Notes: a model not told the origin generated them from the sequence alone. A stretch of DNA of 64,000 nucleotides from an uncultured bacterium (GCA_942492765.1 OW818634.1:217159-281158); one strand, 5' to 3'. Counted from the first letter of the stretch, positions 1 through 23,685 are shown. Made by a program: numbers and translations.

Positions 1-1630
1 AGACAAGGTCGACATCGCTGTTCTTGAGGTCATTAAAGGCCTTAGGCAGGTCGTTAAAGTCGAAGAAGCTGATCTTATAGCCCCTTTCTTTCAAAGTTTT
101 CTCGACGTCTAGGCCTATGACCGTCAGATCTTTCTCAACGACCGTCTCCTGCTCTTCGCCGGTCTCTTCATAGAGATTACAGGCGATGCCGATATGGAGA
201 TTGCGCTGGTTAGAGATCGCCATCTTACGGATCTTCTCGATCTTAGAACGGCGCTTCAGGATATCGACATTGATAGCCGAAGCTGAAAACGGCGAGCGGC
301 GCGTCGTCTTGCCGATAGAAGAGGCGGGGTGAAATTTCGCTACTTCATAATAGATAGCCTTCTCCGCTTCATGCAGATTATCTTGAGCATCGAGCGGATT
401 ATGGCCGGAAACCAGAACCCAGCCCAAATATTCATAGCCGTCCGGCGGACAAAGCACAGAATCGCCGATCTTCTTCTCAAATTGGAATTCCTTAACGAAA
501 GGCCGGCGCTTCAGATCCTCATCAATATCCAGGTTGACGATGATGCCGGAATGATCCGAAGAAAAAGTTTCCGCGACTAGATATTCATAAGGGCCGGCCG
601 GAAAATCAAATTTAGGGATATAGATGCCGCAAGCGATCTTGACCATATTCTCTATCAAGTCGACATGCCAGGCAGCCTTGACGCTCGGATAGACTTCATC
701 GCCGCCGAGACGCAGGTTTATCTCTAGAGGAATCGGGCCGGTCGCGGTTGATTTAGCTTCGAAATGGATGCAGCCGTTGAGCACGCCTAATTTTTCCAAA
801 GTCTCGTCGGCCATCGCGATGAGCTCGGCCTGATGCTTAGGTGGCAAGCTGGATGGGGTCATACGCGTCGTCTCGATGAAGAAAGGCTCCTTAGTCTTGC
901 CATTATCGGATAAGGCGCAGAATTTGATCTTGCCGTTCTGAATAAGGATATCGAGATCGACTTCATCGCCATCGATATATTCTTCCGCAAAGACTTCTAA
1001 GCCGTCGGCTAAAGCCGATTCTATCTTCGGCGAGATAGTCTTCTTGATATAATCATAGCTCTCGCGGAATTCCTCTTCATTATTAACTTTTACGACAAAA
1101 GCGCTGGCCGCGCCGTAAGCCGGCTTAACGACTAGCGGAAAGCTCAAGAGCTTCATGGCTTCTTCTAGGTCCTTACTATTCTTCAGAGCCCTGAATTTCA
1201 ACGTCGGCAAATTATTGGCCGCGCAGAATTCACGGAAAGAATACTTGTTCCTGACCTGAGCCACGACTTTATAAGGGATATTGATGAGATGATACTTATC
1301 AGCGATCTTAGCGGTGAGCAGCACGTCGTCTTCCAAAAAGGTCAGGACGCCGTCCATCTTGATAGCCGGATTATTGCTCAGGAACTTATCGAGAGCGCCG
1401 AGCGATTCTCCATAATTAGAAGTATCGGCAGAGATGGAATAATCGACATAGGGCTGGAAGCTATTAGCTTCCTTACTGAGAATGATGATCTTCACCCCCA
1501 GGTTCTTAACCTTCTTGATAAAAAGCTTCTTAGAATGCAGGGGGTCATTCGCGCCAGAAGTATTGACTATCAGAACCGTCTTGCCGACTAAGGGACTACG
1601 GTTGGAATCCGAATTGCCGTTGCCATTCAT
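1..1630 (-). CDS. ATP-grasp domain protein, truncated by the window edge (L-amino-acid-ligase-like ATP-grasp module followed by the start of a second Ddl-like pre-ATP-grasp module)
   Basis: Absent from ORF track because it runs off the window. Hand translation from ATG at 1630-1628: MNGNGNSDSNRSPLVGKTVLIVNTSG...LSFPLVVKPAYGAASAFVVKVNNEEEF...AEEYIDGDEVDLDILIQNGKI...IHFEAKSTATGPIPLEINLRLGGDEV...NLHIGIACNLYEETGEE. Frame stays open to position 1. Confidence 0.75.
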   Translation of the reverse strand, partial: MNGNGNSDSNRSPLVGKTVLIVNTSGANDPLHSKKLFIKKVKNLGVKIIILSKEANSFQPYVDYSISADTSNYGESLGALDKFLSNNPAIKMDGVLTFLEDDVLLTAKIADKYHLINIPYKVVAQVRNKYSFREFCAANNLPTLKFRALKNSKDLEEAMKLLSFPLVVKPAYGAASAFVVKVNNEEEFRESYDYIKKTISPKIESALADGLEVFAEEYIDGDEVDLDILIQNGKIKFCALSDNGKTKEPFFIETTRMTPSSLPPKHQAELIAMADETLEKLGVLNGCIHFEAKSTATGPIPLEINLRLGGDEVYPSVKAAWHVDLIENMVKIACGIYIPKFDFPAGPYEYLVAETFSSDHSGIIVNLDIDEDLKRRPFVKEFQFEKKIGDSVLCPPDGYEYLGWVLVSGHNPLDAQDNLHEAEKAIYYEVAKFHPASSIGKTTRRSPFSASAINVDILKRRSKIEKIRKMAISNQRNLHIGIACNLYEETGEEQETVVEKDLTVIGLDVEKTLKERGYKISFFDFNDLPKAFNDLKNSDVDLV

Positions 1631-1660
1631 AATGGTTTAGTATTTGATGTTATTCGCTTA

Positions 1661-2461
1661 TTATTTGATCTTATAAGTCACTCCGATCTCGATGACCACT
1701 TCGCGGTCTCCGGCCGGGGTCTGCGGTGCCACCGCTCCGCCGCCTCCTAATCCGCCCTTACCGTAATCAGCCGTGCTATACATCGTAACCGGGTTAACCA
1801 TGTTCTCGTACCAGCCCATGATATCTTTCAGATGGACGCCAGCGCTATCAGCTAAAGCCGCGCTCTTCGCCTTCGCGTCAGCAATAGCTTTCACGCGCGC
1901 CTCTTGCTTCAGGTCGTTCATATTAGAAGCGTCGAAAGTCAGATTATTGACTTGATTGGCGCCGGCTTTAGAGGCAGCGGCGATTACCTGGCTCAATTTA
2001 TCCTGATTCTTATCATAGCCGCTGACCTTGATAATCAGCTGCTCATTAGCATTATAGCCGGAAACGGTCGAGATATTATCCTTATAGTCATACTGGGGGT
2101 ATAAGGAATAATTCTGCGTCTGGATATCGGCCGGCGAAACGCCGACAGCGGTAACGGCCGTGATGATATTGGATACTTTGGTATTAAGCTGATTCAAAGC
2201 GTCTTCCGGCTTGGCGACCTTGTCGATCTGGACGCCAAGATTAAGTATGGCTAGGTCTGGAGTATAAGTGACTTTTCCCTGTCCCGTGATAGTCACGGAT
2301 TTGAATTGTTCATTGACGATACGATCCCTTAGGATAGCGACAATGACGATCGCGGCTAACAAGATTATGCCGACGAGCTTCACGAAGCCGCGGCGCTTAT
2401 GGCTATGGCAGCTGCAAGCGCAGCCCTCTTTCTCTTCGCAACAATTCTTTTCATTTTTCAT
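1661..2461 (-). CDS. SIMPL (DUF541) domain membrane-anchored protein with Cys/His-rich N-terminus
   Basis: Track protein has one TM helix, then ITGQGKVTYTPDLAILNLGVQ and a C-terminal VVIEIGVTYKI typical of SIMPL/26-kDa periplasmic immunogenic protein family. Confidence 0.8.
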   Translation of the reverse strand: MKNEKNCCEEKEGCACSCHSHKRRGFVKLVGIILLAAIVIVAILRDRIVNEQFKSVTITGQGKVTYTPDLAILNLGVQIDKVAKPEDALNQLNTKVSNIITAVTAVGVSPADIQTQNYSLYPQYDYKDNISTVSGYNANEQLIIKVSGYDKNQDKLSQVIAAASKAGANQVNNLTFDASNMNDLKQEARVKAIADAKAKSAALADSAGVHLKDIMGWYENMVNPVTMYSTADYGKGGLGGGGAVAPQTPAGDREVVIEIGVTYKIK

Positions 2462-3784: not shown

Positions 3785-4195
3785 ATGAACAAACAAAACA
3801 GCTTAACGATGGAAAAAACAACAACAGAACAAGAACTTAGAAAGTTCCTTCAACATGCCCTAGATTATCTGGAAAACTCTCAAAAGACTGAAGATGACTG
3901 TTATATGACATTATATCATATAAAAGTTATTGCTGAAGCTTTAAAAGAGGGGGATGAGAATCTAGCCACCATCATATCTTCTTGGATGGCTGACAACAAA
4001 GAGAAATTTCATTTCTGTGCTACCGAAGATGATTTCTATCGGACAATCGGACAGATCGAGATGAATACCGGAAGAATCTTAGATACTGAAACTCCCAGCG
4101 GCTCAGGTACGGGCATCAGGCTTGATAAATTCATCCATTATCTGAATGAAACTTATCCCGGCTATCTCGAGAAAGGCCTGAAAAGGAATATCTAA
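3785..4195 (+). CDS. hypothetical acidic helical protein (true start may be Met9 at 3809)
   Basis: ORF track; no recognisable family; own promoter and terminator. Confidence 0.55.
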   Translation: MNKQNSLTMEKTTTEQELRKFLQHALDYLENSQKTEDDCYMTLYHIKVIAEALKEGDENLATIISSWMADNKEKFHFCATEDDFYRTIGQIEMNTGRILDTETPSGSGTGIRLDKFIHYLNETYPGYLEKGLKRNI

Positions 4196-4223
4196 AAAGA
4201 AAATCTGGAAAAATTAACAAAAA

Positions 4224-4247
4224 CCGAAGCGAACGCCTCGGTTTTTT
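4224..4247. terminator. bidirectional intrinsic terminator between convergent genes
   Basis: CCGAAGC-GAAC-GCCTCGG hairpin flanked by an A-run upstream and a T-run downstream. Confidence 0.7.
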
Positions 4248-4281
4248 ATTATAGATACCTAATTATAATTTTCTCAATCAT

Positions 4282-5202
4282 CTACCAACTGCCTGAAGAT
4301 CCGCCGCCGCCAGACATGCCGCCGCCGAAACCTCCGAAGCCGCCACCAGATGAACCGCCAAAACCGTTATGTCCGCCGCCGCCAAAGAACCAAAGATTAT
4401 TCCGGCCCTTCTTGATCGGGCTCGGCTGAGGCAAGACGCGAGACACAAGAAAATCGAATAATAAACCGAAGACGCCGATAACGGCCGGCAGTATTACCAA
4501 AATTAATAGAGTCCTGAAGAAAATAAGAGCGATGATAAGACCAATCGCTCCACCCAGCACTCCTCCCTGCCACCAGCTCTTACTCTTGGCTAAGCCGCGC
4601 CATAAGGCGGAAAGTAGATAAAAGATGGCGATGATAATAAAGAAAATCGCGTTAAAACTCATGTTCTTGGCGAATTTGAAAGCGGTGCCAGTCGAGATAG
4701 GCGCATCAGCGCTGTATTCCCCTTTGGTCGCGGCAATAATATCATCGGTCGCCTGATTAAGACCTCCATAATAATCCTCTTTCTGGAAAGCTGGCTTCAG
4801 CGTCTGATTAACGATCTTGAAAGCAGTCGCGTCCGGCAAGGCGCCTTCCAGCCCGTAGCCGGTCTCGATCCGCATCTGCCGGTCGTTGAGCGCGACGAGC
4901 AGCAAGACACCATTGTCTTTCTTATCTTTGCCTATGCCCCAATCAGCAAACAACTTGACCGCGAAGTTCTCGATCGTATCGCCCTCTAGGCTCTTGATAG
5001 TCACCACCGCGATCTCATTAGAGGTCGTGGCATTGAACTGGCTCAATTTGCCGTTTAAAGCGCTAGCTTCTTCAGGTTTCAAGAGGCCGGCATAATCACT
5101 AACAAAAGAGGCCGGCTTCCCCGGGTTATAATAAGCCCGGGCCGAAAAACCGGCCGCCAAGAATAAAGCTAAGCAAAAAATTACCAAGACTCGGCGCAAC
5201 AT
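4282..5202 (-). CDS. TPM-domain protein (YgcG-like) with TM segments and Gly-rich C-terminal tail
   Basis: Signal/TM, SFVSDYAGLL...VVTIKSLEGDTIENFAVKLFADWGIG TPM-domain pattern, GGGFGGFGGG tail; sits downstream of lemA as usual. Confidence 0.85.
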   Translation of the reverse strand: MLRRVLVIFCLALFLAAGFSARAYYNPGKPASFVSDYAGLLKPEEASALNGKLSQFNATTSNEIAVVTIKSLEGDTIENFAVKLFADWGIGKDKKDNGVLLLVALNDRQMRIETGYGLEGALPDATAFKIVNQTLKPAFQKEDYYGGLNQATDDIIAATKGEYSADAPISTGTAFKFAKNMSFNAIFFIIIAIFYLLSALWRGLAKSKSWWQGGVLGGAIGLIIALIFFRTLLILVILPAVIGVFGLLFDFLVSRVLPQPSPIKKGRNNLWFFGGGGHNGFGGSSGGGFGGFGGGMSGGGGSSGSW

Positions 5203-5229
5203 AAGCGATTAGTTAGCTTGATAATTAAA

Positions 5230-5787
5230 TTATTTATTCAGATCTAAGTTCACCGTCGGAGCGACCGCGGCCGCTTCAGAGACCTCGAAATAATTCTTCT
5301 CGGAAAAACCGAACATGCCAGCAATCATATTGAGCGGAAAACGCTTGATCATGACGTTGAAAGTCTTGACTGCGTCGTTGAAACGCCCGCGCTCGACGCT
5401 AATACGATTTTCCGTGCCTTCTAATTGCGCCATCAGGGTCTGAACTGTTTCCATAGATTTCAATTGCGGATAATTCTCCATGATGACTAATAAGCGGCCT
5501 AAAGCGCTCTCTACTTGAGTAGCCGCTGCAGCCTTATCATTAACGCTAGTCGCGCCGCTATACTTCGTGCGCGCGTCAGCTAAAGCGCCGAAAACGGATT
5601 GCTCCTGAGTCATCGCGCCTTTAACGGTATTAACCAGGTTAGGAATAAGATCGAAGCGTCTCTGATATTGCGCTTCAACTTGGGCCCATTGATTGTCTAC
5701 GCCTTCGTTGGCGGTTACGAGGTTATTATAAGAGCTCCAGAACCAGCCGCCGATGATAACGATGACGGCAATAATGGCGATCCACAC
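5230..5787 (-). CDS. lemA: LemA family protein
   Basis: N-terminal TM, NNLV...QWAQVEAQYQRRFDLIPNLV...YPQLK...RFNDAVKTFN LemA signature; GTG start in track. Confidence 0.9.
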   Translation of the reverse strand: MWIAIIAVIVIIGGWFWSSYNNLVTANEGVDNQWAQVEAQYQRRFDLIPNLVNTVKGAMTQEQSVFGALADARTKYSGATSVNDKAAAATQVESALGRLLVIMENYPQLKSMETVQTLMAQLEGTENRISVERGRFNDAVKTFNVMIKRFPLNMIAGMFGFSEKNYFEVSEAAAVAPTVNLDLNK

Positions 5788-5888
5788 GGTTTTTTTTCAT
5801 ATTTGTTGTTGATTAGTAAATAAAAAGCGTCAAATAACGCTTTTAAAGCTGAAAATATTATAGCACAAAAATCGGGATTTCGCAATTA

Positions 5889-6794
5889 TCAATTCTTCTC
5901 TAACCACTTCGCAAATTCTTCCCCGCTCCTGCTTCCCGGGCGCAAGCGAGTGATGAGCCAACGATTTTCCGGCTTATGATTCGTGCCCGGAATGACAGAC
6001 AAAGCGCCAAGATAACCGGCATGCTTCATGATTTCTAAGATTTGATAATTATAATATCCGTAAGGATAAGCAAAAGTCAGGACTGGCTGACCGATCATCT
6101 TTTCCAGCTCGCCCTTGCTGCCCTTGATCTCGAAGACGGCGTCCGCTTCTTGCTTCAGGCGCAGATCCGGATGATTGAAAGTATGCGAACCGATTTCAAC
6201 AAAGCCGCTCGCGGCCATTTCCTGGAGCTGGGCTTTAGTGATATAGCCCGGCTTATCCAGCGCATTGATAATTACGTAAAAAGTCCCTTTCAGATTATAT
6301 TTCTTGAGCAACGGGAAAGCATTGATATAGAAATCTTCATAGCCGTCGTCAAACGTCAGAGCGATCGTCTTCGTAGTCGAAGCGCCACTCACGATAGCAG
6401 CCGCCATCTGAGACATAAAGACCGTCTGATAGCCGATTTTAGCTATCTCCTGAAGCTGATTTTCGAATATTGCCGGATGAAGATAGAGACCAGGCAGAGT
6501 CGTCGTGGCCGGAGCTGCGGAAATATAATGATACATCAGGATAGGTGCATGAACGAAAGCAACCCGCGACGGCGAGGGCGGAGTTAATATAGAAGACGCC
6601 GCGGCGCTAGAAGAAGCCGAGGCAGTGATTCCGATCAATGCGGATGAAGAGGCTTTAGAAACTATCAGATTAGCGCTATCAAGATTATTAGCGCGCGCGT
6701 AAAAATCCGCCAGCCAAAAAAGTCCGGCGGCGACGGTTAGAAAGATTATTATCTTTAGCGCTAAGAGCTTAGCGCTTGGCTTTGACACGATCAT
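5889..6794 (-). CDS. polysaccharide deacetylase (NodB-homology) family protein
   Basis: LTFDDGYEDFY...GSHTFNHPDL NodB motifs; N-terminal TM anchor. Confidence 0.85.
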   Translation of the reverse strand: MIVSKPSAKLLALKIIIFLTVAAGLFWLADFYARANNLDSANLIVSKASSSALIGITASASSSAAASSILTPPSPSRVAFVHAPILMYHYISAAPATTTLPGLYLHPAIFENQLQEIAKIGYQTVFMSQMAAAIVSGASTTKTIALTFDDGYEDFYINAFPLLKKYNLKGTFYVIINALDKPGYITKAQLQEMAASGFVEIGSHTFNHPDLRLKQEADAVFEIKGSKGELEKMIGQPVLTFAYPYGYYNYQILEIMKHAGYLGALSVIPGTNHKPENRWLITRLRPGSRSGEEFAKWLEKN

Positions 6795-18732: not shown

Positions 18733-18807
18733 TCCCGGGTAGCGCAGCGGTAGCGCAGTTGGCTGTTAACCAATTGGTCGTCGGTTCGAATCCGACCCCG
18801 GGAGCCA
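18733..18807 (+). tRNA. tRNA-Asn (anticodon GTT), CCA encoded
   Basis: Cloverleaf folded by hand: acceptor TCCCGGG/CCCGGGA, D-stem GCGC/GCGC, anticodon stem GTTGG/CCAAT with loop CTGTTAA, T-arm GTCGG-TTCGAAT-CCGAC, discriminator G, CCA at 18805-18807. Confidence 0.95.
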
Positions 18808-18815
18808 TATGGGAT

Positions 18816-18840
18816 GAGCAGAGCCAAAAGCTCTGCTTTT
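18816..18840 (+). terminator. intrinsic terminator after tRNA-Asn
   Basis: AGCAGAGC-CAAAA-GCTCTGCT then TTTT. Confidence 0.75.
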
Positions 18841-19008
18841 CTCTTTATCTACTGGCTTATTCAGATGTTCGAATATTTTATTTTGGTCTATTTTCTCTTC
18901 CATAAGCTCGCCTACTCGGTCAAAGATGATTTTAAACGCTTTGTGAAAGGAGGCCTCGACTTTTTTGCCGTATATACTTTATAAAAAATCAGCCATCCTG
19001 GAAGATAC

Positions 19009-19042
19009 AAAACCGCCCTCTATTTTCATAGAAGACGGTTTT
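19009..19042 (-). terminator. intrinsic terminator after DUF378 gene (wobble pairs only in minus-strand RNA)
   Basis: 10-bp stem CCGUCUUCUA/UAGAGGGCGG then UUUU. Confidence 0.65.
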
Positions 19043-19063
19043 TCAATCAGATTAAAAAAAAGC

Positions 19064-19270
19064 TTACTGTTTAGCAAGCTTCATGGATATAGCGGCGAGG
19101 TAGACAGCGGCAAGCCCGACGAGAGCGTACACGACTCTTGAGAGCGCGGACATATCACCGAAGATAGTAGCTACAAGGTCAAATTTCAAAATACCGACCA
19201 ACCCCCAATTTAAACCGCCGACAATGACTAATACCAAAGCGATCCAGTCGAAAGCATTAAATTTATTCAT
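19064..19270 (-). CDS. DUF378 domain small membrane protein
   Basis: 68 aa; FDWIALVLVIVGGLNWGLVG DUF378 signature; two TM helices. Confidence 0.8.
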   Translation of the reverse strand: MNKFNAFDWIALVLVIVGGLNWGLVGILKFDLVATIFGDMSALSRVVYALVGLAAVYLAAISMKLAKQ

Positions 19271-19411
19271 AATATTATTTTATTTTTAATGACTTAGTAT
19301 GCGTTTCGACCTCCAACACATATAAAATTATTATATCACAAATCTCGCAAAAGATGATATACTTAATGTACAGATTATGACTGCAAAAGCTAAATTACAA
19401 AATAAAATCTT

Positions 19412-19864
19412 ATGACAGTCCTATGGATTGATAGCATCGGACTATTTCTGTTGCTCGCCGGTTTTGTGATCGGCCTTGGCGCGGTGACAGTCATTGATAT
19501 CCACGGCTTTCTCGGACGAAAGTCATCATACTGGACCGAGGCCACGACCCGAACACATAAAGTTACCAAGCCTATGATCTGGGCTGGTATCATACTTGCT
19601 ATTGTCGGTGGCCTGATTTTTTACCGCGAACAAAGTTTCTCCGGCATTCCCCTTATTCATGCCCTGATTGCCCTCGCTCTCATAGTTAACGGCTATTTCC
19701 TCTCTTTCAAAGTCAGTCCATTTTTATTGAAGCGGGAAAAAGAGGGGTTGTCCGGAGAACTTTTGCCGGCTTCTTGGCAAAGGAAAATTATGGCGAGTCT
19801 TGTCGTGTCAGACATCGGCTGGTGGGGCGGATTGCTTCTCTTGGCCATATATCTTGTAAGCTGA
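19412..19864 (+). CDS. hypothetical 4-TM membrane protein
   Basis: ORF track; four hydrophobic helices; 12 nt upstream of the next gene. Confidence 0.6.
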   Translation: MTVLWIDSIGLFLLLAGFVIGLGAVTVIDIHGFLGRKSSYWTEATTRTHKVTKPMIWAGIILAIVGGLIFYREQSFSGIPLIHALIALALIVNGYFLSFKVSPFLLKREKEGLSGELLPASWQRKIMASLVVSDIGWWGGLLLLAIYLVS

Positions 19865-19876
19865 TAACAAATATTT

Positions 19877-20389
19877 ATGAGAAAAAAGGCCGTAAAAGTG
19901 AACGACAAATTCCAGAAAGGCTACAAATACGAACTTACCGAACCGGTGGAACGGAATTTCCATCCTGACTTTAAGCCGGAACTTACGCCAAAGCAAATGC
20001 TCGCGCTTGGCGTTTTTGGCGGCAAGTACATGACCGACTGCAAAAAGGAATTTCCAAAAGACTGGTTTACCCGCGCCAAGCTTTCGCCCGAGCATCACGA
20101 CGATACGCTGAACTACTTTCACAAACACGCCAGCCAGCCACTCCAAGTTTGGCAGAAAAAAGGATGGATCAACGAAGAGCACGATCCGCGCGGCTGGTTC
20201 CAGTGGTATTGCCGCTACTATATGGGTAGGCGGCTACCGGACGAAGACGAACGACAGATCAAGCGCTGGAAAGCCATCAGTCGGCACATCTCGCAGATCA
20301 AAAAGAATTGTCGTCCGAAAGATTTAACTTGCCGTCCTACTCAAAGGCAGGCAGTGCTCCACTGGGCATACGACAGCCGGAAAATGTGA
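19877..20389 (+). CDS. conserved hypothetical protein (PRGWFQWYCRYYMGRR...RQIKRW motif)
   Basis: ORF track; visibly GC-richer than its surroundings; the motif looks like a conserved family that I cannot name with confidence. Confidence 0.65.
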   Translation: MRKKAVKVNDKFQKGYKYELTEPVERNFHPDFKPELTPKQMLALGVFGGKYMTDCKKEFPKDWFTRAKLSPEHHDDTLNYFHKHASQPLQVWQKKGWINEEHDPRGWFQWYCRYYMGRRLPDEDERQIKRWKAISRHISQIKKNCRPKDLTCRPTQRQAVLHWAYDSRKM

Positions 20390-20558
20390 CCGGAATTTGC
20401 TTAACTTTTCAAAAATTAAGTAAATCGCCCCACGCTCTCAAATTTCGCATTACGGCTCGGCTGGTTTACAAACAGTGCCCAACGTCTAGACCGTCGGATA
20501 CTTATACTCTTTGATCCAGTCAAATGCTTAAAAATCAGATAGAAGGGCGAGCAAGCAT

Positions 20559-20585
20559 AAAAACCCTTGATTTACATGGGTTTTT
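20559..20585 (+). terminator. weak hairpin plus T-run (AAAAACCC-N11-GGGTTTTT)
   Basis: Read directly; only three G-C pairs. Confidence 0.45.
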
Positions 20586-20628
20586 ATTATACACCAGATT
20601 AGATTCGAACTAAATTAAAGTATAAAGA

Positions 20629-20657
20629 TTGACAAAAATATACTTAAATGCTATATT
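20629..20657 (+). promoter_or_regulatory. promoter copy P1: TTGACA-17-TATATT with internal inverted repeat AAATATA-N9-TATATTT
   Basis: Near-identical (~42 bp) to 21203-21231 and flanks. Confidence 0.7.
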
Positions 20658-20695
20658 TATTTATTACATAGATCATTGAAAAATAGGACTAACTG

Positions 20696-20743
20696 GGTTA
20701 ATTACTAAAGCTATCTTCTTTTAGGTGGGGTTAGTAATTAACC
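20696..20743 (+). promoter_or_regulatory. 13-bp perfect stem-loop in the 5' leader of the 99-aa gene
   Basis: GGTTAATTACTAA (20696-20708), 22-nt loop, TTAGTAATTAACC (20731-20743). Confidence 0.7.
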
Positions 20744-20770
20744 TAATATTAATCCTAAAACCAAATAAAA

Positions 20771-21070
20771 ATGAAAAAAGTAATAAATACGGTAGGCTAC
20801 GGCACTACGGAAGGTCTTGCCGATCAAATAACTTTACCTAATGGGCATTTAATTCATACTGAAATTGACTCATTACTTTCAGACGCAGCCGCAAAAAAAG
20901 GGTGTGCCGTAAAAACAGTTGAATTCTTTGGTGCTTGTATTTCCGCAAACCTTGACTACCGTGCTCATAGGAAATTTCCGATTCAGGTTGATGAAGTTAG
21001 CGTAGCTGATTTTATCGACAGAATTGCCACCTCAAAAGAACGCAAAGAGTTCATGAGACAAGTGATGTAG
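20771..21070 (+). CDS. hypothetical 99-aa protein
   Basis: ORF track; own promoter, long leader and terminator. Confidence 0.55.
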   Translation: MKKVINTVGYGTTEGLADQITLPNGHLIHTEIDSLLSDAAAKKGCAVKTVEFFGACISANLDYRAHRKFPIQVDEVSVADFIDRIATSKERKEFMRQVM

Positions 21071-21097
21071 TTGGATATCTGAAAAAAATAAAAATTT

Positions 21098-21127
21098 AAG
21101 CCTTGGAATATATAAAATCCAGGGCTT
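21098..21127 (+). terminator. intrinsic terminator after 99-aa gene
   Basis: AAGCCTTGG-N12-CCAGGGCTT (one G-U pair) then TTAATTT. Confidence 0.6.
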
Positions 21128-21202
21128 TTAATTTACCCAAACTAATCTTAACCGCTGGCTATATTCTATAAAGTTCAGTAAATATACAATCCACGGAACA
21201 TA

Positions 21203-21231
21203 TTGACTAAAATATACCTAAATGGTATATT
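21203..21231 (+). promoter_or_regulatory. promoter copy P2: TTGACT-17-TATATT with perfect 8-bp inverted repeat AAATATAC-N7-GTATATTT
   Basis: Near-identical to 20629-20657. Confidence 0.7.
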
Positions 21232-21274
21232 TTTTTATTACTTTAACAATTAATATCCACATAAAACTCGAAAA

Positions 21275-21445
21275 ATGTGTACCGGAGAAAAAGATTGCAA
21301 ATGCGATAATTGCGTTGCGAAAACACACCCTAAATGGTGCTGTTGCGCAATATGCGTAAGATCTGGAAATAATCAGAAGCCACTGAGCGCTCCAGATGGT
21401 CATGAAGCCTGGTGCCGCTGCGGCAAATGCGTAGGCAAAAGATAA
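21275..21445 (+). CDS. unannotated Cys-rich small protein, 56 aa, 11 Cys and 2 His (metallothionein-like or zinc-knuckle-like)
   Basis: Below the track's apparent size cutoff (no listed ORF is shorter than 60 aa). Codon-by-codon hand translation: MCTGEKDCKCDNCVAKTHPKWCCCAICVRSGNNQKPLSAPDGHEAWCRCGKCVGKR, stop TAA at 21443-21445; promoter upstream and terminator downstream. Confidence 0.55.
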   Translation: MCTGEKDCKCDNCVAKTHPKWCCCAICVRSGNNQKPLSAPDGHEAWCRCGKCVGKR

Positions 21446-21465
21446 ATTATCGTTTATCTAACATA

Positions 21466-21492
21466 AAGGAAGCCTTATAGACTTCCTTTTTT
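21466..21492. terminator. bidirectional intrinsic terminator
   Basis: AAGGAAG-N9-CTTCCTT then TTTT; sits between convergent genes. Confidence 0.7.
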
Positions 21493-21508
21493 ATTTCCCT
21501 TTAATATA

Positions 21509-22351
21509 TTATTCAACGCAAGTCTCGTAAATATCTTTTGGAATCTGGAGCTTAGCCATCAGGCTGCATTCTGGATCATTAGCCCCTCTATATACCTCTT
21601 CCCAGGCATCGCCGTCTTTCTTCATTATGACCGAACTAGTGGACGTCGGATATATTATGGTTAGCTTTATGGCTTCCTTCCCAAGCATAACCGGCACAAC
21701 TGTGACGATCTTATTATCTGTCTTCAAGCCTAATAGGAACGGCATCTGATTGGCGGTCGCCTGAATTGCGTCTTCATTATAGAAACATCCGACTTTAAGA
21801 TTCTTAGGCGCGCTGTCTTCTGAGGCCGTTATCAGGCAGAACTCTTCATTATCTAAGATATAGGCTCGAGTATAATCCTTAAAATCGCCTTCGAGCTTAG
21901 CCATGGACGAGACATCGGTCTTAGAAACCGAGGAATTAGCCTTATTAAGCTTGAAGCCCTTGCTTAAGAAGATATTTTCCGCGATATCCGCTAAATCCTT
22001 AGGAGAATCGTAATTTACATTTAAGAAACCGATATTATTCTGGACAAAGATATTATAATCCTTGCCTGTTATCCAGCGGCTCTTAGTTTTAAGATCTGGC
22101 TGTGCGCGCAGATTCATCTGCTCATCCAATATGCCCAGCTTCCCTTCTATCCCGTAGTTATCCTTGATCTTATTATAAATCTCGGTCAAGGCTGATTTAG
22201 CGGCCAAGCCCTTGGCTAACGGCGCCTGAGAAGTGTTCTCCTGGGATGGCTGGTTAGCGGCTGGCGGCTGGTTTCCTAAAATTGCCGGACGGCTGCAGCC
22301 CGCGACTAAGAATAAAGATAAGCTCAAGAAAGAAACAATGATCTTTTTCAT
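21509..22351 (-). CDS. putative lipoprotein, function unknown
   Basis: Signal peptide with lipobox LVAGC; no recognisable domain. Confidence 0.6.
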   Translation of the reverse strand: MKKIIVSFLSLSLFLVAGCSRPAILGNQPPAANQPSQENTSQAPLAKGLAAKSALTEIYNKIKDNYGIEGKLGILDEQMNLRAQPDLKTKSRWITGKDYNIFVQNNIGFLNVNYDSPKDLADIAENIFLSKGFKLNKANSSVSKTDVSSMAKLEGDFKDYTRAYILDNEEFCLITASEDSAPKNLKVGCFYNEDAIQATANQMPFLLGLKTDNKIVTVVPVMLGKEAIKLTIIYPTSTSSVIMKKDGDAWEEVYRGANDPECSLMAKLQIPKDIYETCVE

Positions 22352-22392
22352 AAGACGATCTTAAATGATTATACTATCATTATATTCTATTT

Positions 22393-23685
22393 TTAATAAT
22401 CCCTCAACTTTTCCAGTCCTTTGAATTTTCTGATCTTCTCTAAGGACTTGGATTCGATCTGGCGAATACGTTCGCGCGTGACTTCGAATTCCTGTCCGAC
22501 TTCTTCTAGAGTGTGGGCGACGCCGTCGACCAGACCGAAGCGCATTTCTAAAATCTTCTGTTCGCGCGGCGATAGCTGGGCCACGATATTCTTCACATAG
22601 TCTTTTAATAACTGTAAGGCAGCGGCGCGATCCGGCGTGACATTCTTCACGTCTTCGATAAAATCTTCCAAAGTCGAATCTTCGTCATCATCGCCGATAG
22701 TCGTCTCTAGAGATATAGTATCTTGCGAAATCTTCATGATATATCTGACCTTATCGATATCTTCTCCCATTTCCGAAGCGATCTCGTCAGCTAAAGGCTC
22801 GCGGCCTAATTCCTGAATCAGGTTGCGCTGGACTTGCTGGAATTTATTGATCGTCTCAACCATGTGGACCGGGATGCGGATGGTTCTGGACTGGTCAGCT
22901 AAAGCGCGCGTAATCGCTTGGCGTATCCACCAGGTCGCGTAAGTCGAGAACTTATAGCCTTTGCGATATTCGAATTTCTCAACCGCGCGGAATAAGCCGA
23001 TATTGCCTTCTTGGATAAGATCCAATAAGCTCATGCCTTTAGCGCCGGCGAATTTCTTAGCGATAGAGACGACTAGGCGCAGGTTTGCTTCGATAATCCT
23101 CTTTTCCGCTTCCTTATCGCCCTTTTCCTTGCGCTTAGCCAGTTCAACTTCTTCGTCGCCGCTCAATAACGGGACTTTGCCGATCTCTTTCAAATACATC
23201 TGGATAGAATCAGCGCTCAGTTTCGACAGGTCGACGTTTAGCGCGTTCTGATGCGCCAAAGCTTTTCCGGTCAAAGGCGGTTCAGCCGCTTTCTTCTCAG
23301 CTGTATCTAAGATGCGGCCGGAATCTTCCATGATCCTGACGCCGCTCTTCTGCAATTCGCCCAAAAAGACGTCGTATTCATAAACATACTCTTCCACTTC
23401 CGGGAAAAGGTATAACAATTCAGTCTCAGTGATGAAGCCGCGCAAGCGCCCCTTCTCAATCAGCTTCTTCAGCTGCTCTTCGGTCGGCTTAACGACCGGC
23501 TTAGCTTCTCGCGCTGGCGCGACTTTAACGCCTTTCAGGCCATGGCTTGAGAAATTCTTCTTCGCCTTTTTCGCCGTGCCGCGGACATTCTTTTTAGGCT
23601 TAGCCTTAGGGGCTGGCTTAGCTTTTGGCTTCGGCGCTGGCTTGCGAGCCGGCTTCTTATTTTTCGCTTTAGTGTTTTTAACCAT
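22393..23685 (-). CDS. rpoD: primary RNA polymerase sigma factor RpoD with ~70-aa Lys/Ala/Pro-rich N-terminal tail
   Basis: Regions 1.1-4.2 recognisable ([40 protein letters not shown]). Confidence 0.95.

Follow-up and report, generated by a model that had tools for sequence, protein, structure and literature searches.

The analysed stretch, referred to below as the window, comprises 64,000 nucleotides from an uncultured bacterium, whose best RpoD matches belong to Ca. Falkowbacteria and other Patescibacteria MAGs (72–80% identity), which bears out the patescibacterial origin presumed in the first-pass annotation. The gene under study (21275–21445, plus strand, stop codon included) encodes a protein of 56 amino acids, MCTGEKDCKCDNCVAKTHPKWCCCAICVRSGNNQKPLSAPDGHEAWCRCGKCVGKR. 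Eleven of its residues are cysteines (positions 2, 8, 10, 13, 22, 23, 24, 27, 47, 49 and 52), and the motif CxCxxCV recurs three times, at residues 8–14, 22–28 and 47–53, the second and third copies being directly preceded by H18-x2-W21 and H43-x2-W46, respectively. Translation reproduces the ORF, its sequence, the eleven cysteines, the three repeats and the two HxxW prefixes just as the first-pass annotation, made by a model from the sequence, had described them. Neither a signal peptide nor a hydrophobic segment is present in the protein. The density of cysteines and motifs is far above chance: when the entire 64 kb is translated in all six frames, the pattern C.C..C turns up three times, always inside this ORF, the extended pattern H...C.C..C was seen twice against an expectation of 0.02, and 100 Markov simulations of 56 stop-free codons averaged 6.2 cysteines and never exceeded 9, compared with the 11 found here. 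The coordinates of the features are compiled in Table 1; homologues and their loci carry our working designations (L001, P0012 and so on).

Table 1. Features of the 56-aa gene and of one multi-module relative, with the basis of each assignment (window coordinates, except in the last row, which refers to locus L090)
Feature	Coordinates	Strand	Basis
Promoter module, 40 nt	21202..21241	+	Promoter scan and sequence; putative promoter/operator function
Antisense ORF, 61 aa, spurious	21218..21403	-	Frame not conserved
Coding sequence, 56-aa Cys/His-rich protein	21275..21445	+	Translation, homologues, open frame, pN << pS
Module 1, C2-x5-C8-x-C10-x2-C13, residues 2-13, predicted Cys4 site	21278..21313	+	Alignments; putative zinc binding
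Module 2, H18-x3-C22-x-C24-x2-C27, residues 18-27, predicted HisCys3 site	21326..21355	+	Invariant ligands; spacing as in the putative TRPC5 site
Linker, residues 28-42, V-R-x-G-x-N-Q-K-x3-A-P-x2, candidate functional surface	21356..21400	+	Conservation; presumed role
Module 3, H43-x3-C47-x-C49-x2-C52, residues 43-52, predicted HisCys3 site	21401..21430	+	Invariant ligands
Intrinsic-terminator-like hairpin and U-run	21465..21497	+	RNA fold; terminators resembling it at L004, L094 and L095
L090 transglutaminase-like protein with four-module tail	333-1679	+	PF13369; tail covered by no Pfam model

The signals around the ORF support its reading as a transcription unit of its own, probably delimited by an upstream terminator, a promoter and a terminator. 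The putative promoter consists of a -35 hexamer TTGACT (21203–21208), a 17-nt spacer and an extended -10 element TGgTATATT (21223–21231); it reaches 10/12 in the promoter scan and is the consensus-like promoter to which the first-pass annotation had pointed at 21203–21231. Its -10 region is overlapped by a perfect 10-bp inverted repeat, AAAATATACC-N5-GGTATATTTT (21209–21233). The intrinsic terminator announced by the same annotation is also present: a hairpin AAAGGAAG...CUUCCUUU (21465–21489), followed by UUUUAUUU, folds with a dG of -13.1 and a z-score of -3.3, a stability attained by 0/200 shuffles. The pattern scanner missed this hairpin because of its loop of more than 8 nt, and it was found by RNA folding. 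The element sits between the 56-aa gene and a convergent gene ending at 21509, and a hairpin with a T-run also ends the homologous genes in L004, L094 and L095. Because the 99-aa gene upstream ends with a hairpin and U-run of its own, the 56-aa ORF is predicted to be monocistronic. A Shine-Dalgarno motif is absent before the ORF; this absence is uninformative since only 6 of 63 sizeable window genes show an SD-like motif in the 25 nt before their start, the upstream sequence being A/T-rich instead. Translation in this patescibacterial genome seems to start largely without SD pairing. The sequence GAGGAGG precedes the homologues in L005 and L093.

When 1.84 billion cluster representatives were searched exhaustively with phmmer, 6 small homologues with E-values from 1e-14 to 3e-7 were obtained, and a profile search lifted their number to 8; the small homologues are 48–82 aa long and show identities of 41–69%. 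Scanning JGI metagenomes with a DNA pattern restricted to the ligands returned 3 true members, among them the new member L093, together with the multi-module protein L090, and a cluster look-up added one fused member, P0012. Matches were found neither in a word-index protein search with the single 56-aa sequence, nor in a scan of the peptide against genome contigs, nor by tblastn against phage and plasmid collections; the ligand-only DNA pattern scan of the viral collection gave 0 hits, and a repeat profile search including the L090 modules retrieved no further members. The exact 56-aa product is absent from a collection of 15 billion proteins, in which a neighbouring 280-aa protein is likewise unrecorded. 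Large TPR proteins in the phmmer output (P0007–P0009) were rejected as a spurious fit to the TPR consensus 'KPDxHEAW'. The protein itself has no match in Pfam, PADLOC, PDB sequences or NCBIfam. NCBIfam gave one weak match (E = 0.036) in a single other family member, and a weak match to phrog_8483 (E = 0.002), confined to 2/12 sequences, was not relied upon. The family is thus new and very rare: some 11 members stand against 5.8 billion protein clusters, in which small ORFs are under-called, and it is without a representative in Pfam, NCBIfam or the PDB.

The homologous DNAs also disclose the strand and frame on which selection acts. The plus frame is open in 7/7 of them, and the frame equivalent to the antisense ORF carries 1–3 stop codons in 5/6 homologous genes; that ORF exists, as the first-pass annotation stated, and is spurious, as it also stated. 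In all 21 pairs formed by the 7 DNAs, synonymous divergence is saturated (pS 0.51–0.94) and exceeds non-synonymous divergence (pN 0.14–0.43), with pN/pS = 0.18 for the window versus L004, the closest pair, and 0.17 for L005 versus L093. The homologue search and selection test that had been suggested as a check therefore yield clear relatives and protein-level purifying selection on the plus frame, and two of the outcomes named beforehand as damaging, loss of the reading frame in relatives and conservation of the antisense ORF, were not observed. A chance ORF or a decaying, non-functional fragment might have been suspected because gene finders missed the ORF, its exact product is unrecorded, an SD motif is lacking and the family is extremely rare. 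SD sites are, however, lacking genome-wide in general, and the motif counts lie far beyond chance expectation; the homologues at E-values down to 1e-14, the saturated synonymous but low non-synonymous change and the intact frame effectively refute such an origin, which we consider scarcely credible. The 56-aa ORF is a genuine gene that had escaped annotation. It represents one uncalled case of the small proteins which annotation systematically misses, in the Patescibacteria, a lineage with reduced genomes and many unknown genes.

An alignment of 11 sequences defines the anatomy of the family. H18, C22, C24, C27, V28, K35, A39, H43, C47, C49 and C52 are invariant, D11, G31, N33, Q34 and P40 are kept in at least 90% of the members, and Cys23, the middle residue of the 'CCC' in the window protein, is variable. 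The core accordingly consists of two H-x3-C-x-C-x2-C modules, 25 residues apart and joined by a linker of the form V-[RK]-x-G-x-N-Q-K-x3-A-P-x2. Module 3 is an internal duplicate of module 2, and the corresponding DNA repeat (21335–21358 and 21410–21433) is still 79% identical over 24 nt. The N-terminal module, C-x5-7-C-x-C-x2-C, is found in 6/11 members and replaced by unrelated sequence in the others; the N-terminus is therefore the variable and dispensable part of the family, while conservation spans residues 18–52. Predicted ligands come in exact fours, namely 12 in three-module and 8 in two-module members, the latter containing 6 cysteines per 64 aa. The net charge varies between -7 and +5 across the members, and therefore no uniform nucleic-acid-binding surface is evident.

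An AF2 model of the 56-aa protein, built on a 9-sequence alignment and of moderate confidence (mean pLDDT 75), contains as its only helices residues 11–17, 25–30 and 50–53, each of which starts right after the second cysteine of a cluster. A Foldseek comparison of the model with the PDB and BFVD gave 0 matches. In the picture that we favour, the cytoplasmic 56-residue protein would be almost devoid of a hydrophobic core, and three consecutive four-ligand knuckles would hold the fold. Each knuckle is predicted to clamp one structural Zn2+, provided with ligands by Cys2/8/10/13, His18/Cys22/24/27 and His43/Cys47/49/52, respectively, whereby a short helix would have the second and third cysteines of each CxCxxC at its N-terminal end, with the fourth ligand located 3–5 residues upstream. 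The indispensable unit would be the two HxxxCxCxxC knuckles, spaced by 25 residues, together with the V-R-x-G-x-NQK-x3-AP linker, and the role of the protein might lie in binding or assisting a macromolecular partner as a zinc-scaffolded module rather than in storing metal. We give this reading as a zinc-scaffolded mini-protein (one Cys4 and two HisCys3 sites) acting as binding or adaptor module about an even chance. Zinc as the metal, its stoichiometry of one per module and the adaptor role are what we infer; three mononuclear sites are assumed because of the precedents in TRPC channels and small t antigen discussed below and because of the helix starts in the AF2 model, and the count of four ligands per module argues for such predicted sites without proving them. 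The His+Cys3 sites suggested by the first-pass annotation thus remain the most plausible, if predicted, interpretation, both ligand sets (H18/C22/C24/C27 and H43/C47/C49/C52) being invariant in the 11 sequences, and among its alternatives the zinc-knuckle mini-protein fits best. Bridged metal-thiolate clusters, too, are made from CxC and CxxC motifs, and the 56-aa protein may form such a cluster or hold a metal other than zinc (Cu(I), Cd or Fe). If the zinc reading is true, three Zn per 56 residues would place the protein among the most zinc-dense folded mini-proteins known and offer a compact scaffold on which HisCys3 sites could be studied or engineered.

The spacing of modules 2 and 3 has counterparts in eukaryotic and viral proteins. 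In human TRPC5 the HXXXCXCXXC motif formed by H172, C176, C178 and C181 constitutes a putative single zinc site, conserved throughout the TRPC channels, in which the four side chains point at one metal, although the Zn density at this position is not unambiguous, and the same motif coordinates Zn2+ in UHRF1 (PMC7683545). The identical H-x3-C-x-C-x2-C spacing of TRPC channels and UHRF1 (PHD region, PDB 3zvz) occurs twice in the 56-aa protein. The only PDB matches of the family profile are to residues 160–184 of TRPC4, with an E-value of 0.24 and a score of 14.7 bits, which is below significance, and the residues preceding the TRPC4 motif are also similar to NQKPLSAPDGHEAWCRCGKCV of the family. 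The TRPC motif is, in contrast, a single copy within a eukaryotic channel of ~900 aa, whereas here 2–3 tandem copies make up a whole bacterial mini-protein; convergence is at least as likely as homology.

A second precedent is provided by SV40 small t antigen, in which each of the CxCxxC clusters binds a separate Zn together with C103 or H122 and no binuclear cluster is formed; the second and third cysteines of the CxCxxC lie at a helix N-terminus, and the unique domain, stabilised by zinc, provides the surface to which the PP2A A subunit binds (PMC1945078). As in the family described here, the two small t clusters are 25–27 residues apart and each takes one further ligand, Cys or His, from upstream, and the position of Cys 2/3 at the helix N-terminus matches the secondary structure predicted for the 56-aa protein by AF2. 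The fourth ligand, however, lies 7–15 residues upstream in small t compared to 3–5 in the 56-aa family, and small t is a eukaryotic-viral protein carrying a J domain, whereas the family is bacterial. A comparison by hhalign gave a probability of 0.65% for homology to small t, and the PDB sequence and Foldseek searches were empty in this respect. Because homology is either not significant or absent, the family is not assignable to the TRPC/UHRF1 or the small t families; by analogy, it might work like these sites, yet as a member of neither family. If the zinc reading is true, its sites would give bacteria an equivalent of a zinc site so far encountered in TRPC channels and polyomavirus small t antigen. 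The retroviral-type CCHC zinc knuckle (PF00098) was considered and rejected, as the spacing C-x2-C-x4-H-x4-C is absent and Pfam gave no match.

Prokaryotes possess zinc-finger 'micro-proteins' such as YacG and the haloarchaeal one-domain proteins, which are shorter than 70 aa, stand alone, owe their fold to a zinc site and act by partner binding. The 56-aa family belongs to this known general kind of small zinc-finger-like proteins. It differs from the YacG type, built of CxxC...CxxC ribbons or knuckles, in its tandem (C/H)-x3-5-CxCxxC arrangement, and it matches none of their profiles. The finding, made in Patescibacteria, delineates a family of tandem (C/H)-CxCxxC knuckles that is rare and conserved.

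Further indications for the role of the domain come from its fusions. P0012 (277 aa) joins the two-module domain to an all-helical domain of ~213 aa, whose homologue in L092 is encoded by a separate gene, 27 nt upstream of a 48-aa member and on the same strand. Between P0012 and L092 the knuckle part is ~91% identical (4 differences in 47 aligned residues) and the partner domain 62%. The ~213-aa N-terminal domain of P0012 has no Pfam, NCBIfam or PDB match, and the single-sequence AF2 model of P0012 reaches a pLDDT of 35; its YHNxxH...WYHD motif looks HD-like. L090 is a transglutaminase-like protein (PF13369), the C-terminus of which contains four HxxxCxCxxC modules with spacings of 23, 25 and 25 residues. 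The P0012/L092 fusion and L090 speak for a module with a binding or accessory function rather than for a metal store, this evidence coming from single contigs of two lineages and the link of L090 to the family from a hit pre-selected by its ligand pattern.

The surroundings of the L095 fusion gene (4001–4834) were also inspected. It lies 363 nt upstream of a gene for a 522-aa retron-type reverse transcriptase (PADLOC RT_VI, E = 6e-25), beside which Rfam finds no msr RNA. The same region (4001–6765) includes an Eco57I-like methyltransferase gene and a 213-aa repeat protein read as pentapeptide-repeat-like, and it looks like a defence or accessory island. A radical-SAM/SPASM gene is located ~2.5 kb from the fused homologue and has its own 64-aa peptide gene directly upstream.

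Size and Cys/His content had led to a comparison with bacterial metallothioneins of the SmtA/BmtA type, and this likeness holds: both are small (~55 aa in SmtA/BmtA), with mixed Cys/His ligands and a cytoplasmic location. A new prokaryotic metallothionein class or metal buffer, storing or detoxifying Zn, Cd or Cu in a labile multi-metal thiolate cluster, would agree with a protein of 20% Cys and 2 His rich in CxC and CxxC motifs typical of metallothioneins, with a stand-alone gene behind a strong predicted promoter and its operator-like 10-bp palindrome, and with the position of the L001 homologue 120 nt upstream of a P-type cation ATPase gene. The Pfam domains of that ATPase, however, mark it as a type-II cation pump as opposed to one of the heavy-metal P1B group, and the pairing is not conserved. 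In SmtA, bridging thiolates are part of a Zn4Cys9His2 cluster. The family, in contrast, has discrete ligand sets in exact multiples of four, into which the unconserved extra Cys23 does not enter, only six cysteines in its 64-aa two-module members and a non-ligand linker (V28, G31, N33, Q34, K35, A39 and P40) that is invariant or nearly so; moreover, the domain occurs fused to enzyme-like proteins. Metallothio_Pro (PF02069) was not matched in a Pfam scan of the window protein and 9 aligned members at E-values up to 5, and the best profile, Metallothio_11, reached a non-significant E = 0.94 in one member, in line with the first-pass remark that no obvious sequence homology to metallothioneins is visible. 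Genes of the ArsR/SmtB family were found neither among the immediate neighbours in the window, which include no other Pfam-recognisable regulator either, nor among the called genes around 5 homologues. Metallothionein identity is therefore unsupported and, in our view, rather unlikely.

The other alternative raised, a Cys-rich RiPP-like precursor, whose maturase would be encoded elsewhere, draws on the small size and cysteine content of the peptide and on the radical-SAM/SPASM gene near the L095 fusion. That gene, however, has a peptide gene of its own, and an adjacent maturase (radical SAM, cyclodehydratase etc.), transporter or peptidase was found in 0/7 small-gene contexts, i.e. the window, where the lack of a maturase gene had already been noted, L001, L004, L005, L092, L093 and the P0004 contig. 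Conservation extends across the entire core including both histidines instead of being split between leader and core, and the domain forms the C-terminus of proteins of 277 aa and at least 449 aa. A RiPP precursor, such as one of the SCIFF/ranthipeptide type, consequently appears very improbable, and we return to the zinc-scaffolded module as the preferred reading.

The genomic setting of the gene is that of accessory DNA. No conserved neighbourhood emerged across 8 loci, the neighbours differing among the seven small-gene contexts just named. In the window the gene lies 950 bp from rpoD, and a family member beside rpoD was found in none of 80 related genomes. Synteny with Falkowbacteria-like MAGs is kept on the dnaG side of rpoD and lost on the side of the 56-aa gene; the block 18733–22392, which extends from tRNA-Asn (18733–18807) to rpoD, is lower in GC (0.41 compared to 0.46–0.49) and made up of hypothetical genes; downstream of rpoD, the closest MAGs offer no counterpart to them. 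The block has the appearance of a variable islet beside a tRNA gene. Because the 56-aa gene is without a syntenic counterpart beside rpoD and is part of this low-GC, lineage-specific block, we regard it as accessory. In L092, a 316-aa ORF read as transposase/integrase (890–1840, plus strand) is placed ~0.8 kb from the 48-aa member, which fits carriage of the family in mobile or accessory DNA.

The vicinity of rpoD might hint at a thiol redox or metal switch, in which cysteine oxidation frees zinc and thereby alters a partner, as in Hsp33 or the ZAS anti-sigma factors. The predicted HisCys3 sites indeed resemble redox-sensitive zinc centres, and the equivalent cysteines of TRPC5 are reported targets of glutathionylation (PMC7683545). 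The adjacency to rpoD is, however, unique to the window, no sigma factor gene is found beside other members, and the motif is HxxxCxCxxC instead of the ZAS motif HxxxCxxC, with no match to zf-HC2 or any other Pfam family. A ZAS anti-sigma factor was thus rejected, and for a redox switch in general we see a slim chance.

In its most extended form, the preferred reading of the domain as a zinc-scaffolded module would make the HxxxCxCxxC 25-residue knuckle a portable, undescribed prokaryotic zinc module. The free-standing proteins of 48–82 aa would dock in trans onto enzymes of accessory or defence islands, for example the L095 HD-like protein beside the retron-type reverse transcriptase, and the window gene and the 99-aa gene would form a co-regulated two-gene system in a symbiotic CPR bacterium. 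This far-reaching version is speculative and, taken as a whole, appears distinctly improbable to us. As long as neither a partner nor a phenotype is attached to the family, its biological significance is modest.

Two neighbours of the gene deserve mention. The 170-aa ORF at 19877–20389 (plus strand) has no Pfam match; a Moranbacteria MAG (L024) encodes a counterpart with 67% identity, and PADLOC weakly matches the ORF to a DruM methylase fragment (E = 6e-4). A relationship between the 170-aa neighbours of the window gene and of L001 was rejected, their equal length being coincidental and similarity absent. The 99-aa ORF at 20771–21070 (plus strand) is without a match in Pfam, NCBIfam, PHROGs, PADLOC and the PDB. 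Its leader of ~100 nt (20668–20770) contains a perfect 13-bp inverted repeat (20696–20708 and 20731–20743, with 22 nt between the arms) that might form a regulatory hairpin; Rfam gave nothing credible on window positions 20000–23000, which include this leader. The 40-nt promoter module of the 56-aa gene, comprising -35, spacer, extended -10 and a few bases beyond it, is present twice and has no other copy in the 64 kb: the second copy, 90% identical, occupies 20628–20667 in front of the 99-aa ORF, and the inverted repeat, perfect over 10 bp at 21209–21233, is imperfect there (7/10). On the sequence evidence, these paired modules suggest co-regulation or a recent promoter duplication.
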